From Escherichia coli (GTDB lineage Bacteria; Pseudomonadota; Gammaproteobacteria; Enterobacterales; Enterobacteriaceae): a DNA stretch of 64,000 nt. How positions within the stretch are numbered: position 1 is the first letter of the stretch; each line of letters begins with the position of its first letter. Below are positions 1 through 40,547 of this stretch, piece after piece. The stretch lies in assembly GCF_045037415.1 (NCBI RefSeq), contig NZ_CP173438.1. The stretch is one strand, 5' to 3'. A program made the position numbers and the translations under genes. The notes below the pieces were generated by a model. The model ran no database searches and was not told where the DNA came from. It saw only the letters and a program-made list of their open reading frames with translations.

Positions 1-274
1 CTGCGCGCAGGCTTGCCCCGAATCGCTATTTTCTCCGCGCCACACCAGGGCCTGGGATTTGCAGTTCACCATTGGGGACGCGTGCCTGGCGTATCAGTCA
101 GTTGAATGCCGCCGCTGTCAGGATAGCTGTGAGCCAATGGCAATTATCTTTCGCCCGACGCTCTCCGGGATCTACCAGCCGCAACTTAATAGCCAACTTT
201 GCAACGGATGTGGAGCATGTGCAGCCAGCTGTCCGGTATCAGCCATAACTGCGGAGTATCTCCATGCACACTAA
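1..274 (+). CDS. napF: Ferredoxin-type protein NapF, C-terminal part (5' end lies outside window)
   Basis: Frame continuous from window edge: ...ESLFSPRHTRAWDLQFTIGDACLAYQSVECRRCQDSCEP...CNGCGACAASCPVSAITAEYLHAH, with 4Fe-4S cysteine clusters; directly upstream of napD-napA. Confidence 0.9.
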   Translation, partial: CAQACPESLFSPRHTRAWDLQFTIGDACLAYQSVECRRCQDSCEPMAIIFRPTLSGIYQPQLNSQLCNGCGACAASCPVSAITAEYLHAH

Positions 275-527
275 CTGGCAAGTTTGCAGCCTGGTCGTGC
301 AGGCCAAAAGCGAACGAATTTCAGACATCAGCACCCAACTGAACGCCTTTACCGGCTGTGAAGTTGCTGTCAGCGACGCGCCGAGCGGTCAGTTGATTGT
401 GGTGGTGGAAGCAGAAGACAGCGAAACGCTGATCCAAACCATTGAGTCAGTACGCAACGTAGAGGGCGTGCTGGCGGTGTCGCTGGTTTATCACCAGCAG
501 GAAGAGCAAGGTGAGGAAACACCATGA
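264..527 (+). CDS. napD: NapD, chaperone for NapA Tat signal peptide
   Basis: 87-aa ORF MHTNWQVCSLVVQAK...; position between napF and napA; stop overlaps napA start (ATGA). Confidence 0.95.
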   Translation: MHTNWQVCSLVVQAKSERISDISTQLNAFTGCEVAVSDAPSGQLIVVVEAEDSETLIQTIESVRNVEGVLAVSLVYHQQEEQGEETP

Positions 528-3011
528 AACTCAGTCGTCGTAGCTTTATGAAAGCTAACGCCGTTGCGGCCGCTGCGGCGGCTGCCGGTTCTCAGCGTGC
601 CGGGCGTTGCCCGCGCCGTTGTTGGTCAGCAGGAAGCCATTAAATGGGATAAAGCGCCGTGCCGTTTCTGCGGTACGGGTTGCGGCGTTCTGGTCGGAAC
701 GCAGCAGGGGCGTGTGGTGGCTTGTCAGGGCGACCCGGACGCACCGGTTAACCGTGGCCTGAACTGCATTAAGGGCTATTTCCTGCCCAAAATCATGTAC
801 GGTAAAGACCGTTTGACGCAGCCGCTGCTGCGTATGAAAAACGGTAAATATGATAAAGAAGGCGAATTTACCCCAATCACCTGGGATCAGGCCTTCGATG
901 TGATGGAAGAGAAATTCAAAACCGCCCTGAAAGAAAAAGGGCCGGAATCGATCGGTATGTTCGGTTCTGGTCAGTGGACTATCTGGGAAGGTTATGCCGC
1001 GTCCAAGCTGTTTAAAGCGGGCTTCCGTTCGAACAACATCGACCCGAACGCGCGTCACTGTATGGCGTCGGCAGTAGTTGGCTTTATGCGTACCTTTGGT
1101 ATGGATGAGCCGATGGGCTGCTATGACGACATCGAGCAGGCTGACGCGTTTGTGCTGTGGGGCGCAAACATGGCGGAGATGCACCCGATCCTCTGGTCGC
1201 GCATCACTAACCGTCGTCTCTCTAACCAGAACGTTACCGTGGCGGTGCTTTCTACCTACCAGCATCGTAGCTTCGAGCTGGCGGATAACGGCATCATCTT
1301 TACGCCGCAATCTGACCTGGTGATCCTGAACTATATCGCCAACTATATCATTCAAAACAATGCGATAAATCAGGACTTCTTCAGCAAACACGTTAACCTG
1401 CGCAAAGGGGCGACGGACATCGGCTACGGTTTACGTCCGACCCATCCGCTGGAAAAAGCAGCGAAGAATCCGGGTTCTGACGCCTCCGAACCGATGAGCT
1501 TTGAAGATTACAAAGCCTTCGTTGCTGAATATACGCTGGAAAAAACCGCCGAAATGACCGGCGTGCCGAAAGACCAGTTAGAACAACTGGCGCAGCTGTA
1601 TGCCGATCCGAACAAGAAAGTCATCTCCTACTGGACGATGGGCTTCAACCAGCATACCCGTGGTGTGTGGGCCAACAACCTGGTCTACAACCTGCACCTG
1701 CTGACCGGCAAAATTTCCCAGCCGGGTTGCGGTCCGTTCTCCCTGACCGGGCAGCCTTCCGCGTGTGGTACTGCGCGTGAAGTGGGCACCTTTGCTCACC
1801 GTCTGCCTGCGGACATGGTGGTGACTAACGAGAAACATCGTGATATTTGCGAGAAGAAGTGGAATATCCCGAGTGGCACCATTCCGGCGAAAATCGGTCT
1901 GCACGCGGTGGCACAAGACCGTGCGCTGAAAGACGGCAAACTGAATGTTTACTGGACCATGTGTACCAATAACATGCAGGCCGGACCGAACATTAATGAA
2001 GAGCGTATGCCGGGCTGGCGCGATCCGCGCAACTTTATCATCGTTTCCGATCCATATCCGACGGTCAGTGCGCTGGCAGCGGACTTGATCCTGCCGACCG
2101 CAATGTGGGTAGAGAAAGAGGGGGCTTACGGTAATGCCGAACGCCGTACTCAGTTCTGGCGTCAGCAGGTACAGGCACCGGGTGAAGCAAAATCGGATCT
2201 CTGGCAGTTAGTTCAGTTCTCCCGTCGCTTCAAAACTGAAGAAGTGTGGCCGGAAGAGCTGCTGGCTAAGAAACCGGAACTGCGTGGCAAAACGCTGTAT
2301 GAGGTTCTGTATGCCACTCCGGAAGTGAGCAAATTCCCGGTATCCGAACTGGCGGAAGATCAGCTGAACGACGAATCTCGCGAGCTGGGCTTCTATCTGC
2401 AAAAAGGGTTGTTCGAAGAGTACGCATGGTTTGGTCGCGGTCACGGTCACGATCTCGCGCCGTTCGATGATTACCACAAAGCACGCGGTCTGCGCTGGCC
2501 GGTGGTGAACGGTAAAGAAACGCAGTGGCGTTACAGCGAAGGTAACGACCCGTACGTGAAAGCGGGCGAAGGCTACAAGTTCTACGGTAAACCGGATGGC
2601 AAAGCGGTGATCTTCGCGCTGCCGTTCGAACCTGCGGCGGAAGCGCCGGATGAAGAGTACGACCTGTGGCTCTCTACCGGACGCGTCCTGGAGCACTGGC
2701 ATACCGGCAGTATGACTCGCCGTGTACCGGAACTGCACCGCGCCTTCCCGGAAGCGGTTCTGTTTATTCACCCGCTGGATGCGAAAGCGCGCGATCTGCG
2801 CCGTGGCGACAAAGTGAAAGTGGTTTCTCGCCGTGGCGAAGTGATCTCGATTGTCGAAACGCGCGGTCGTAACCGTCCGCCGCAGGGCCTGGTGTACATG
2901 CCGTTCTTCGACGCCGCACAGCTGGTTAACAAACTGACGCTGGATGCGACCGATCCGCTCTCGAAAGAGACGGACTTCAAGAAGTGCGCGGTCAAACTGG
3001 AGAAGGTGTAA
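524..3011 (+). CDS. napA: Periplasmic nitrate reductase catalytic subunit NapA, disrupted by an apparent +1 frameshift at about 589-590 (pseudogene or sequence error)
   Basis: ATG at 524 encodes Tat leader [22 protein letters not shown], then frame stops at 641-643; the rest of NapA ([32 protein letters not shown]... to ...[10 protein letters not shown]) is in the +1 frame as the 815-aa ORF 564..3011. Confidence 0.9.
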
Positions 3012-23966: not shown

Positions 23967-24992
23967 CTACACCGCCTTATTAGGATCAAATGCGTCGCGG
24001 ACGGCTTCACCAATAAAGATCAGCAAAGACAACAATATCGCCACCGATAAGAAGGCGGTGATCCCAAGCCACGGGGCCTGAAGGTTATTTTTCCCTTGTA
24101 ACAGGAGTTCGCCGAGTGACGGTGAACCGAGCGGCAGACCGAAGCCGAGGAAATCGAGTGAGGTCAGGGTGGTTATCGAACTACATAAAATAAACGGTAA
24201 AAAAGTGAGGGTAGCGACCATGGCATTTGGCAACATATGACGCAGGATGATACTGCGATCGCTGACGCCAAGCGCCTGCGCCGCGCGGATGTAGTCGAAA
24301 TTACGGGTACGTAAAAACTCCGCCCGCACCACGCCGACCAGACTCATCCAGCCAAACAAGACAGTAATTGCCAGCAGCCACCAGAAGTTAGGCTGTACGA
24401 CGCTGGAAAGTAAAATAATCAAAAACAGCGTCGGCATCCCCGACCATACTTCAATAAAACGTTGCCCCCAGAGATCGACTTTACCACCGTAATAGCCTTG
24501 TAGCGCCCCCGCCAGCACACCCATCACGCTGGAGCAGAGGGTCAGCATCAGGCCAAACAGAACTGAGATCCGCGTGCCATAGAGAATGCGCGCCAGCACA
24601 TCGCCGCCATTGGCATCCGTTCCCAGCCAGTTTTGCCGGGAGGGTGGAGAAGGGAAGGGCTTATCGGTAGCAAAGTTGATACTGGTAGCACCAAAGCGAA
24701 TCGGTGCCCACAGTACCCAGCCGTTATTTTCCAGTCGTTGTTTCAGCCACGGGTCCTGATAATCAGCCTGACTTGCCAGCGGGCCGCCAAAATCGCTTTC
24801 GCTGTAGTTTTTCAACAACGGGAAATACCAACTGCCGTCATAACGCACCAGCAACGGTTTATCGTTGGCGATAAGTTCAGAACACAAACTCAAACCAAAC
24901 AAGAGGAGGAAAATCCATAACGACCAGTAGCCGCGACGGTTATGGCGAAAACGCGCCCAACGGGCCTGATTGACGGGGCTGAGTCGCGACAT
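23967..24992 (-). CDS. yejE: Peptide ABC transporter permease YejE
   Basis: 341-aa membrane [31 protein letters not shown]... Confidence 0.93.
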   Translation of the reverse strand: MSRLSPVNQARWARFRHNRRGYWSLWIFLLLFGLSLCSELIANDKPLLVRYDGSWYFPLLKNYSESDFGGPLASQADYQDPWLKQRLENNGWVLWAPIRFGATSINFATDKPFPSPPSRQNWLGTDANGGDVLARILYGTRISVLFGLMLTLCSSVMGVLAGALQGYYGGKVDLWGQRFIEVWSGMPTLFLIILLSSVVQPNFWWLLAITVLFGWMSLVGVVRAEFLRTRNFDYIRAAQALGVSDRSIILRHMLPNAMVATLTFLPFILCSSITTLTSLDFLGFGLPLGSPSLGELLLQGKNNLQAPWLGITAFLSVAILLSLLIFIGEAVRDAFDPNKAV

Positions 24993-26087
24993 TAACGTCC
25001 CTCAAAGTCTATACGCGGATCGACCAGCGTATAGCTGATATCACTGACAATATTCAGCAGCAGGCCAATCAGGGTGAAAATATACAAGGTACCAAACATT
25101 ACAGGATAATCGCGCGAGACGGTCGCTTCGTAGCCCAGTAAGCCAAGACCATTGAGTGAAAACATCACCTCAATCAGCAGCGAGCCGGTAAAAAACATGC
25201 TGATAAACGTCGCCGGAAAACCGGCAATCACCAGCAGCATGGCGTTGCGGAACACATGTTTCCAGAGAATATTTTTTTCACTTACCCCTTTCGCACGTGC
25301 CGTCACCACGTATTGCTTACGCACTTCATCAAGGAATGAGTTTTTTGTCAGCATGGTCAGAGCCGCAAAGCCGCCAATCACTGTCGCCAGCACCGGCAGC
25401 GTGATATGCCACAGATAATCGGTGATTTTCTGATACCACGGCAGCGAATCAAAGTTAGCGGAAACCAGGCCGCGCAGAGGGAACAGATCGAAATAGCTGC
25501 CGCCCGCGAAGAAGACAATCAGCAGGATGGCAAACAAAAAGGCCGGAATGGCGTAGCCGATGATGATAAATGCACTACTCCAGACGTCAAAACGGCTCCC
25601 ATTATAAACAGCTTTGCGAATGCCTAACGGAATCGACACCAGATAGATAATCAGCGTGCTCCACAATCCGAGGGTGATGGAGAACCGGCAGACTGTCTTT
25701 AATCAGCGTCAGCACCGAGGCGCTGCGAAAAAGGCTGTCGCCAAAATCAAAACGGATGTAGTCCCAGAGCATTTTGAAGTAACGTTCGTGGATCGGCTTA
25801 TCGAAACCGTAGCGATGAGTGATCTCGGCGATCACTTCTGGATCTAATCCGCGTCCGCCACGGTAATTACTGTCGCTGATATTGCCGACGCCCGTTTGCG
25901 CATGGCTGGCGCGAACACCTTCACCGCCTGCGCCGGGTAATACTCCGGCATTGCCAAACTCAATGGCGGCGATGGCCTGGTCGACCGGACCGCCAGGCGC
26001 AATTTGCACGATGAAAAAGTTGATAGTGATAATCGCCCATAGCGTTGGGATCACCAGCAACAGACGGCGGATCAGATAAGCGCCCAT
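24992..26087 (-). CDS. yejB: Peptide ABC transporter permease YejB, disrupted by an apparent +1 frameshift near 25683-25684 (pseudogene or sequence error)
   Basis: N-terminal part [28 protein letters not shown]...LIKDSLPV in ORF 25602..26087, C-terminal part ...[17 protein letters not shown]...DPRIDFEGR in ORF 24992..25666; the frames differ by one extra T. Confidence 0.9.
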
Positions 26088-38855: not shown

Positions 38856-40547
38856 ATGAAAACGCTGCTGATTATTGACGCTAATCTCGGTCAGGCACGC
38901 GCCTATATGGCGAAGACCCTGCTGGGCGCGGCGGCGCGAAAAGCAAAACTGGAAATCATCGACAATCCGAACGACGCAGAAATGGCGATTGTTCTCGGTG
39001 ATTTCATCCCGAATGACAGCGCGCTGAACGGTAAAAATGTCTGGCTGGGCGATATTTCCCGGGCAGTTGCGCACCCTGAGCTGTTCCTGAGTGAAGCCAA
39101 AGGCCATGCGAAACCTTACACTGCGCCGGTCGCTGCGACAGCACCGGTTGCTGCTAGCGGTCCGAAACGCGTAGTTGCGGTGACTGCTTGCCCGACTGGT
39201 GTAGCACACACCTTTATGGCGGCTGAAGCCATTGAAACCGAAGCGAAAAAACGTGGCTGGTGGGTGAAAGTTGAAACCCGTGGTTCTGTTGGCGCGGGTA
39301 ATGCAATCACACCTGAAGAAGTCGCAGCAGCGGATCTGGTGATTGTGGCGGCAGATATCGAAGTGGATCTGGCGAAATTTGCTGGTAAACCGATGTATCG
39401 CACCTCTACCGGTCTGGCGCTGAAGAAAACTGCGCAGGAACTGGATAAAGCGGTTGCTGAAGCAACGCCGTATGAACCAGCGGGCAAAGCTCAAACAGCG
39501 ACCACTGAAGGTAAGAAAGAGAGTGCAGGCGCTTACCGTCACTTGCTGACGGGCGTCTCTTACATGCTGCCGATGGTTGTTGCAGGTGGTCTGTGTATCG
39601 CGCTTTCTTTTGCTTTTGGTATCGAAGCGTTTAAAGAGCCGGGTACGTTGGCAGCGGCGCTGATGCAGATTGGTGGTGGTTCAGCCTTTGCGCTGATGGT
39701 GCCGGTACTGGCAGGTTATATTGCCTTCTCCATTGCCGATCGTCCGGGTCTCACGCCGGGTCTGATTGGCGGTATGCTGGCGGTTAGCACCGGTTCTGGC
39801 TTCATTGGCGGTATTATTGCGGGCTTCCTGGCGGGTTACATTGCGAAGTTAATCAGTACGCAACTGAAACTGCCACAGAGTATGGAGGCACTGAAACCGA
39901 TCCTGATCATTCCGCTAATTTCCAGTCTGGTGGTCGGTCTGGCGATGATCTACCTAATCGGTAAACCGGTTGCTGGCATTCTCGATGGGTTGACTCACTG
40001 GCTGCAGACCATGGGGACTGCGAATGCGGTTCTGCTGGGGGCGATCCTCGGTGGCATGATGTGTACTGACATGGGCGGTCCGGTAAACAAAGCAGCGTAC
40101 GCATTCGGTGTGGGTCTGCTGAGTACTCAAACCTATGGCCCGATGGCGGCGATTATGGCGGCAGGTATGGTGCCACCGCTGGCAATGGGTCTGGCAACAA
40201 TGGTGGCGCGTCGTAAATTCGATAAAGCGCAGCAGGAAGGTGGCAAAGCCGCTCTGGTACTTGGTCTGTGCTTTATTTCGGAAGGTGCAATTCCGTTTGC
40301 TGCTCGTGATCCGATGCGTGTGCTACCGTGCTGTATCGTTGGTGGGGCGCTGACTGGCGCAATCTCAATGGCGATTGGTGCGAAACTGATGGCTCCGCAC
40401 GGTGGTCTGTTTGTTCTGCTGATCCCTGGCGCTATTACGCCGGTATTGGGTTACCTGGTAGCAATTATTGCCGGTACGCTGGTGGCGGGTTTGGCCTATG
40501 CCTTCCTCAAACGCCCGGAAACACAAATAGTAGAAAAAAACGCATAA
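38856..40547 (+). CDS. fruA: Fructose PTS EIIB'BC component FruA
   Basis: 563-aa ORF; duplicated IIB domains (one with CPTGVAHT) and polytopic IIC domain. Confidence 0.95.
   Translation: MKTLLIIDANLGQARAYMAKTLLGAAARKAKLEIIDNPNDAEMAIVLGDFIPNDSALNGKNVWLGDISRAVAHPELFLSEAKGHAKPYTAPVAATAPVAASGPKRVVAVTACPTGVAHTFMAAEAIETEAKKRGWWVKVETRGSVGAGNAITPEEVAAADLVIVAADIEVDLAKFAGKPMYRTSTGLALKKTAQELDKAVAEATPYEPAGKAQTATTEGKKESAGAYRHLLTGVSYMLPMVVAGGLCIALSFAFGIEAFKEPGTLAAALMQIGGGSAFALMVPVLAGYIAFSIADRPGLTPGLIGGMLAVSTGSGFIGGIIAGFLAGYIAKLISTQLKLPQSMEALKPILIIPLISSLVVGLAMIYLIGKPVAGILDGLTHWLQTMGTANAVLLGAILGGMMCTDMGGPVNKAAYAFGVGLLSTQTYGPMAAIMAAGMVPPLAMGLATMVARRKFDKAQQEGGKAALVLGLCFISEGAIPFAARDPMRVLPCCIVGGALTGAISMAIGAKLMAPHGGLFVLLIPGAITPVLGYLVAIIAGTLVAGLAYAFLKRPETQIVEKNA

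Follow-up and report, generated by a model that had tools for sequence, protein, structure and literature searches.

Surplus thymines in napA and yejB of an ST131-like Escherichia coli assembly as probable consensus errors at methylated Eco31I sites

Frameshifted genes and Eco31I sites in the window

The stretch of DNA analysed here (the window; 64 kb in total) comes from an ST131-like E. coli and includes two genes annotated as frameshifted pseudogenes, i.e. napA on the plus strand (524–3011) and yejB on the minus strand (24992–26087). Both genes contain one surplus T compared to the intact reading, and translation showed that the frame is lost past Ala-Ala-Gly in napA and past Ser-Leu-Pro in yejB and is restored in both genes when one T is dropped; the intact napA gene has 2487 nt and encodes 829 aa. 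The same flags are found in related RefSeq records, in which napA is listed as frameshifted in Esc16, Esc10 and ECKH-100, and yejB in Esc20. By contrast, napA is intact as WP_000778067.1 in SK1144 and E1, and yejB is intact as WP_000501604.1 in SK1144, Esc10, ECKH-100 and E1.

The first-pass annotation had proposed that the two genes are broken by an extra T within one and the same 12-mer, and this proposal held. CTGCCGGTTCTC is present in exactly two copies in the window, one on the plus strand in napA (582–593) and one on the minus strand in yejB (25680–25691), while 0 copies were expected based on 100 dinucleotide-preserving shuffles of the window. The coordinates given earlier were exact for the yejB copy and one base off for the napA copy, which had been placed at 581–592. 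The 11-mer without the extra T has no copy in the window. At both loci, the intact form is CTGCCGGTCTC, which includes GGTCTC, the recognition site of Eco31I that is also cut by BsaI. Each 12-mer, hence, contains a corrupted Eco31I site reading GGTTCTC instead of GGTCTC, at 587–593 in napA and at 25680–25686 on the minus strand in yejB. In napA, the surplus base is either the T at 589 or that at 590, and in yejB it corresponds to an extra A at 25683–25684 on the plus strand. The sequence at the frameshift, CCGGTCTC, is without homopolymers or short tandem repeats, and a TT is present only once the T has been inserted.

A third lesion of the same kind, which was missed in the first-pass annotation, is located in yejM in an Eco31I site on the minus strand (14695–14700). 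Here, the plus strand reads GAAACC, with the A at 14697, in place of the true GAGACC; on the minus strand, GGTCTC is replaced by GGTTTC, i.e. C>T at the cytosine that is methylated in Eco31I sites. Because this change is synonymous in yejM, it could not be noticed from the reading frames. Six assemblies have the C>T change at the yejM site and another three have a +1 insertion there; 9/9 of these assemblies carry the gene for the m5C methyltransferase.

The three remaining Eco31I sites in the window are all on the plus strand. Those at 19632–19637 (context ATGGTCTCG) and 39747–39752 (context CGGGTCTCA) are correct and the same in all assemblies compared; the site at 61259–61264, which again has the context ATGGTCTCG and lies beyond the region compared with E1, equals the Esc20 record and is apparently correct. 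Thus, as written, the window has three copies of GGTCTC, compared to 16.7 expected, and the true count is six. We rejected the idea that the low count reflects many corrupted sites, because a true count of six per 64 kb fits 378 per 5.1 Mb.

The window contains a further annotated frameshifted pseudogene, the remnant of the autotransporter gene yejO (12921–13843); the earlier statement that only two genes are frameshifted and that the remaining genes have full length was, therefore, incorrect. The yejO remnant is old and common to the intact reference genomes and is, therefore, unrelated to the lesions at GGTCTC. The window also contains 269 GATC (Dam) sites and 160 CCWGG (Dcm) sites, and no Dam or Dcm site was found among the positions that differ between the assemblies compared over 50 kb.

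The parental strain E1 and its sibling clones

The window matches the Esc20 record (NZ_OZ369358.1) exactly over positions 1–3000 and, over positions 14001–64000, is identical to it save one base, 55956, which is not in an Eco31I site. Esc1–Esc31 are "escaper" transconjugants that were obtained after conjugating a CRISPR-carrying plasmid into clinical strains, and Esc1–24 are given as derived from strain E1 (PMC12774652, Table 2). The Esc genomes were sequenced by Nanopore and assembled using long-read assemblers and Autocycler, with no short-read polishing described, while the assemblies of the parental strains E1–E3 are hybrid (PMC12774652). According to these methods, the Esc series is Nanopore-only.

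We located E1 (strain CNR20191027; NZ_OZ369157.1) via the junction between the gene for the M2 methyltransferase of the Eco31I system and ISEcp1. In E1, napA as well as yejB is intact, and 5/5 Eco31I sites of the region read GGTCTC. We then compared the window, Esc16, Esc10 and Esc26 with E1 over 49,981 aligned bases. The window has three differences from E1, i.e. +T at 589, C>T on the minus strand at 14697, and +T at 25683. Esc16 has two differences (napA +T and yejB +T), Esc10 has one (napA +T), and Esc26 has two (napA C>T and yejB +T). Thus, every difference from E1 in these four assemblies sits at an Eco31I site. The site in napA reads CTGCCGGTCTC in E1 and SK1144; among the Esc assemblies, 15 have GGTTCTC here and 11 have GGTTTC, and the latter form, as present in Esc26, results in a false NapA L23F variant. 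The site in yejB reads GGTCTC in E1, SK1144, Esc10 and ECKH-100.

A genuine frameshift pseudogene is expected to be inherited clonally and to have its lesion in the ancestor or in a defined sub-clade. In the Esc series, all four combinations of the napA and yejB states are present among siblings with no coherent inheritance, and the ancestor E1 has neither lesion. Because a single overnight conjugation experiment separates E1 from the clones, this scattered pattern cannot be mutational. The intact parent together with the incoherent sibling states effectively excludes that the heterogeneity among the Esc clones is real. In total, we conclude that napA and yejB are intact in the strain.

The first-pass annotation had also considered a deliberate or site-directed lesion; this could be, e.g., the removal of a BsaI/Eco31I site in an engineered strain. 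GGTCTC serves as the cleavage site in Golden Gate cloning, and a synthetic-biology experiment gave rise to the Esc clones. Cas9 in that experiment, however, was aimed at blaCTX-M-15 and not at napA or yejB (PMC12774652). Moreover, the domestication of a site would employ silent substitutions rather than frameshifts, and the changes vary among siblings, with three forms at a single base, and are found again in clinical assemblies that are unrelated. We, therefore, consider the probability that the sites were altered on purpose to be negligible.

Eco31I methyltransferases and the distribution of the lesions

The ST131 reference strain EC958 has an Eco31I type IIS restriction-modification system (RM.EcoMI) on the genomic island GI-leuX, in which M2.Eco31I generates GGT(m5C)TC and M1.Eco31I generates GAG(m6A)CC on the opposite strand; 378/378 chromosomal sites in EC958 are m6A-modified (PMC4659465). 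The first part of the EC958 record, where the tags used in that paper (EC958_0008-0010) would place the genes for the system, does not contain them, and they were located on GI-leuX. In ATCC 25922, the Eco31I locus of which is 100% identical, Nanopore modified-base calling detected both 5mC and 6mA at the motif (PMC12679398). 

The first-pass annotation had suggested looking for a methyltransferase with a target overlapping the shared motif. GGTCTC lies within the 11-mer, and the genes for both Eco31I methyltransferases are present in the strain. In Esc16, both are intact (WP_001295726.1 and WP_001295727.1) and have the same accessions as those of EC958, and Esc20 carries a match to a segment of the M2 gene, as judged from the count of matching places in its record. 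The system in the E1/Esc16 lineage thus has the same recognition sequence and the same two methyltransferases as RM.EcoMI of ST131 (PMC4659465); it differs from that of EC958 in that the annotation no longer includes an endonuclease gene beside the methylase genes, and an ISEcp1-blaCTX-M-15 unit is present downstream of M2. Based on this gene content together with the data for EC958 and ATCC 25922, the napA, yejB and yejM sites are likely methylated in E1.

To relate the lesions to the methyltransferase, we used BLAST queries in which a variant site was linked by N spacers to part of the M2 gene against complete E. coli genomes. Both sites are embedded in 80-bp contexts that are conserved throughout E. 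coli, and the napA context is present in ~5,420 genomes; at both loci, the large majority of ~5,400 genomes have CTGCCGGTCTC. A +T at napA or yejB was detected in 27/5,424 complete genomes, and 27/27 of these carry M2, which overall is present in ~12% of the complete genomes (634–643 of 5,426). The ~600 remaining M2-positive genomes have neither +T. Outside the Esc series, the carriers of a +T include the separately deposited assemblies ECKH-100 (Taiwan), 98194 and 98212 (Egypt), A1.S1.126, 439 and 446; 447 and the UID series are likewise among the affected assemblies. 98212 is a non-ST131, M2-positive genome with the napA +T, while its 24 closest relatives at the locus have neither M2 nor the +T. 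At yejB, 98212 has GGTTTC and no insertion; this sequence is natural in 98212, and the site is, therefore, not an Eco31I site. We rejected that this GGTTTC is another error because the methylase-negative relative M217 shares the allele.

The errors extend beyond the window. In the fec region of GI-leuX, Esc16 and Esc26 have two differences in 25 kb, both of which are +T at GGT^CTC and which falsely frameshift fecB in Esc16 and fecA in Esc26. Two further sites on GI-leuX lack the methylated C compared to EC958 in both Esc16 and Esc26, and one of these two losses frameshifts a gene for a GTPase. Altogether, one or more assemblies had an error at 7/15 Eco31I sites examined, and 8/15 never varied; all affected sites examined (7–8) are changed at GGT^C by +T, -C or C>T.

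These data also bear on the possibility that the k-mer CCGGTCTC is hard to read for the basecaller or assembler independently of methylation. Context clearly has an influence: 5/5 sites with CCGG in front varied, compared to 2/10 in other contexts (Fisher p = 0.007). However, the 80-bp napA context is shared by the ~5,420 genomes, and the +T is confined to carriers of the m5C methyltransferase; 98212 is affected and its methylase-negative close relatives are not; and sites without CCGG fail too, i.e. those in fecB (CAGGTCTC) and yejM (GGGTCTC). An error that depends on context and not on methylation is, therefore, highly improbable. The first-pass annotation had regarded the 12-mer as the specific element; our data support instead that the error-prone unit is the 6-bp Eco31I site, with CCGG before it favoured. 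We also considered whether another methylase, with CCGG or RCCGGY as its target, causes this preference; because none is described for ST131, we rejected this and put the preference down to signal context. A preference is supported for CCGG only, and the CTG that the two 12-mers additionally share is either a mild coincidence, of about 1 in 64, or an additional context effect.

Alternatively, the lesions could be genuine recurrent mutations, with Eco31I-methylated sites acting as real hot spots for deamination or for damage and repair. Dcm-site C>T changes are classical hot spots of 5-methylcytosine deamination in E. coli, and C>T at 5-methylcytosine is a well-known class of real mutation. Moreover, GGTTTC in napA is the fixed allele of ST73 (Nissle 1917, ATCC 25922) in assemblies of all eras, and 58/58 genomes with GGTTTC in napA encode M2. 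However, three forms are observed here, of which C>T at the methylated cytosine makes up one, and deamination yields neither +T nor -C. Changes at real hot spots are passed on clonally and consist of C>T alone, whereas the changes described here are scattered among isogenic siblings: 26 Esc clones that are one conjugation away from E1 differ at the napA site in two ways, and all differences of Esc16, Esc10 and Esc26 from E1 are at Eco31I sites. The sites lack a repeat tract in which slippage could take place, and the many other M2-positive genomes lack either +T. Genuine mutation as the source of the lesions is, therefore, very improbable, if marginally less so than a purely contextual error. 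The on/off frameshifts between close isolates also resemble phase variation by slipped-strand mispairing at simple repeats; that mechanism differs in that the sites described here are without a homopolymer or tandem repeat and the parent is intact.

A separate question is whether Eco31I-methylated cytosines are genuine C>T hot spots in the long term that erode GGTCTC in carrier lineages. Because the C>T in napA is genuinely fixed in ST73 (NapA L23F), real erosion of methylated sites stays plausible, although we consider it rather unlikely.

Probable origin of the surplus thymines and its implications

The explanation that the first-pass annotation had put first, i.e. that basecalling or assembly errs systematically at a motif with modified bases, is supported by the presence of an Eco31I site, the methyltransferases, the position of the inserted T at the methylated base pairs, the intact parent and the siblings compared, which disagree at these sites alone. 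We conclude that the surplus Ts are, almost certainly, consensus errors of Nanopore long-read-only assembly at the strain's own methylated Eco31I sites, as judged from the sequence comparisons. 

In the true genome, both loci would contain CTGCCGGTCTC, with m5C introduced by M2 and m6A by M1. The m5C (top-strand position 4) adjoins the T that pairs with the m6A (top-strand position 3), and the surplus T falls exactly between the two modified base pairs. Because m5C and m6A are on adjacent base pairs, either read orientation would have a modified base at the error point. Basecalling models, which are trained mainly on common motifs, may take m5C for T, and the neighbouring m6A may disturb the opposite strand; with the opposite strand also perturbed, the error could not be outvoted by reads of a clean strand. 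Since the motif is strain-specific and probably poorly handled by the basecaller, calls would waver between C, T, TC and nothing, and the consensus of the assembly would settle randomly on C, T, TC or a deletion. A +T or -C would then break the frame, and a C>T would give a false SNP. Similarly, the identical 12-mers would result from the same context giving the same signal and, hence, the same miscall.

Errors at modified bases in Nanopore assemblies have been described previously. Errors at Dcm CCWGG sites were reported in R9.4.1 Nanopore assemblies of ST131 (PMC8235852), and strain-specific ambiguous positions that vary between repeat assemblies were reported in R10.4.1 Kit 14 Nanopore data (PMC11610573). 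As in these published cases, the errors described here are at or beside modified bases, are confined to methylase-bearing strains, differ between assemblies of the same strain, and inflate the differences between identical isolates. They differ from the published cases in that the motif is the type IIS site GGTCTC. Moreover, substitutions of a purine by a purine or a pyrimidine by a pyrimidine make up most of the published cases, whereas single-base indels are frequent here, and genes are, therefore, falsely annotated as frameshifted pseudogenes. We found no reports of Nanopore errors at GGTCTC/GAGACC in the searchable literature. The Eco31I system itself is, almost certainly, the cause of the artefact rather than the feature observed, and the position of the error is that of the m5C/m6A base pairs. 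In total, the lesions amount to a sequencing and assembly artefact of an established type, at a motif for which our searches of the available literature yielded no such errors.

The biological interest of the lesions themselves is low and there is nothing to follow up. However, few clinical E. coli clones have been sequenced as often as ST131, and Eco31I is carried by about one in eight complete E. coli genomes. Nanopore-only assemblies of such strains can err at a sizeable share of the ~380 GGTCTC sites, which gives rise to false pseudogenes (napA, yejB, fecA and fecB), false protein variants (NapA L23F in Esc26) and spurious differences between identical isolates. RefSeq records submitted by several laboratories already contain such errors; outbreak analyses based on cgMLST or SNPs, as well as pseudogene counts, would be distorted by them. 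For genome scans, the lesson is that when frameshifts have a short motif in common, the strain's own methyltransferases should be checked first.

False variants and true differences in the public records

The Nanopore-only consensus errors at methylated Eco31I sites (GGTCTC) have given rise to both a false protein variant and false pseudogenes in the records of the laboratory siblings of clinical strain E1. In the napA region of the Esc26 record, NapA L23F is a false variant caused by this artefact. In the fec regions of Esc16 and Esc26, the artefact frameshifts fecB in Esc16 and fecA in Esc26, and a GTPase-family gene is falsely frameshifted in both genomes.

For the remnant of the autotransporter gene yejO (window 12921-13843), the annotation records a frameshift, an internal stop and an incomplete gene. 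SK1144, E1 and the Esc genomes all have this remnant; the non-ST131 strain 98212, by contrast, has an intact yejO of 2592 nt. The yejO remnant is an old, real pseudogene that is unrelated to the Eco31I-site errors.

Separately, comparison of the window with the Esc20 RefSeq record revealed a T at position 55956 in folE where the record has C. This difference is synonymous and lies outside any Eco31I site; moreover, the T is the allele of several other E. coli genomes. None of the records in the collection thus agrees with the window at every base.

The Eco31I locus and the Esc20 chromosome

Directly downstream of the gene for the Eco31I m5C methyltransferase (M2), genomes of the E1/Esc16 lineage carry an ISEcp1-blaCTX-M-15 unit, as seen at positions 3983904-3986297 of the Esc16 chromosome NZ_OZ369465.1 (3905-6298 of the extracted locus L012). 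By contrast, the ST131 reference strain EC958 has the restriction endonuclease gene at this place. Because no endonuclease is annotated at the Eco31I locus in the E1/Esc16 lineage and ISEcp1-blaCTX-M-15 occupies its EC958 position, both Eco31I methylases appear to be orphaned in this lineage.

The M2-ISEcp1 junction was found in 39 complete genomes, and Esc20 is missing among them. The Esc20 chromosome (NZ_OZ369358.1) comprises 5,068,914 bp and is ~88 kb shorter than those of E1 and most siblings (~5,156,500 bp), while the recipient of Esc20 was reported to be E1 (PMC12774652). The shortfall and the missing junction could mean that a large segment around the Cas9 target has been deleted; alternatively, they could stem from a labelling issue.

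Eco31I methylation and its sites across E. coli

The M2 gene segment is missing from ~11 of the 51 listed ST131-like genomes in the ecoli_genomes collection, including SK1144, SA186 and AR_0089. This agrees with published work in which ST131 clade B and some clade C strains lack the Eco31I system.

GGTCTC is strongly under-represented in the window, with three copies as read (19632, 39747 and 61259) and six true copies compared to 16.7 expected from shuffles. This scarcity is consistent with the EC958 chromosome containing only 378 GGTCTC sites (PMC4659465).

When the napA site (window 587-593) is read as GGTTTC, the result is NapA L23F. GGTTTC at this site is also a genuine ST73 allele, present in Nissle 1917, ATCC 25922 and Seattle 1946, in genomes from all sequencing eras. 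The Eco31I m5C methylase is present in all genomes with GGTTTC at this site (58/58). These observations hint that the ST73 lineage has genuinely lost a methylated Eco31I site at napA through a C>T change.
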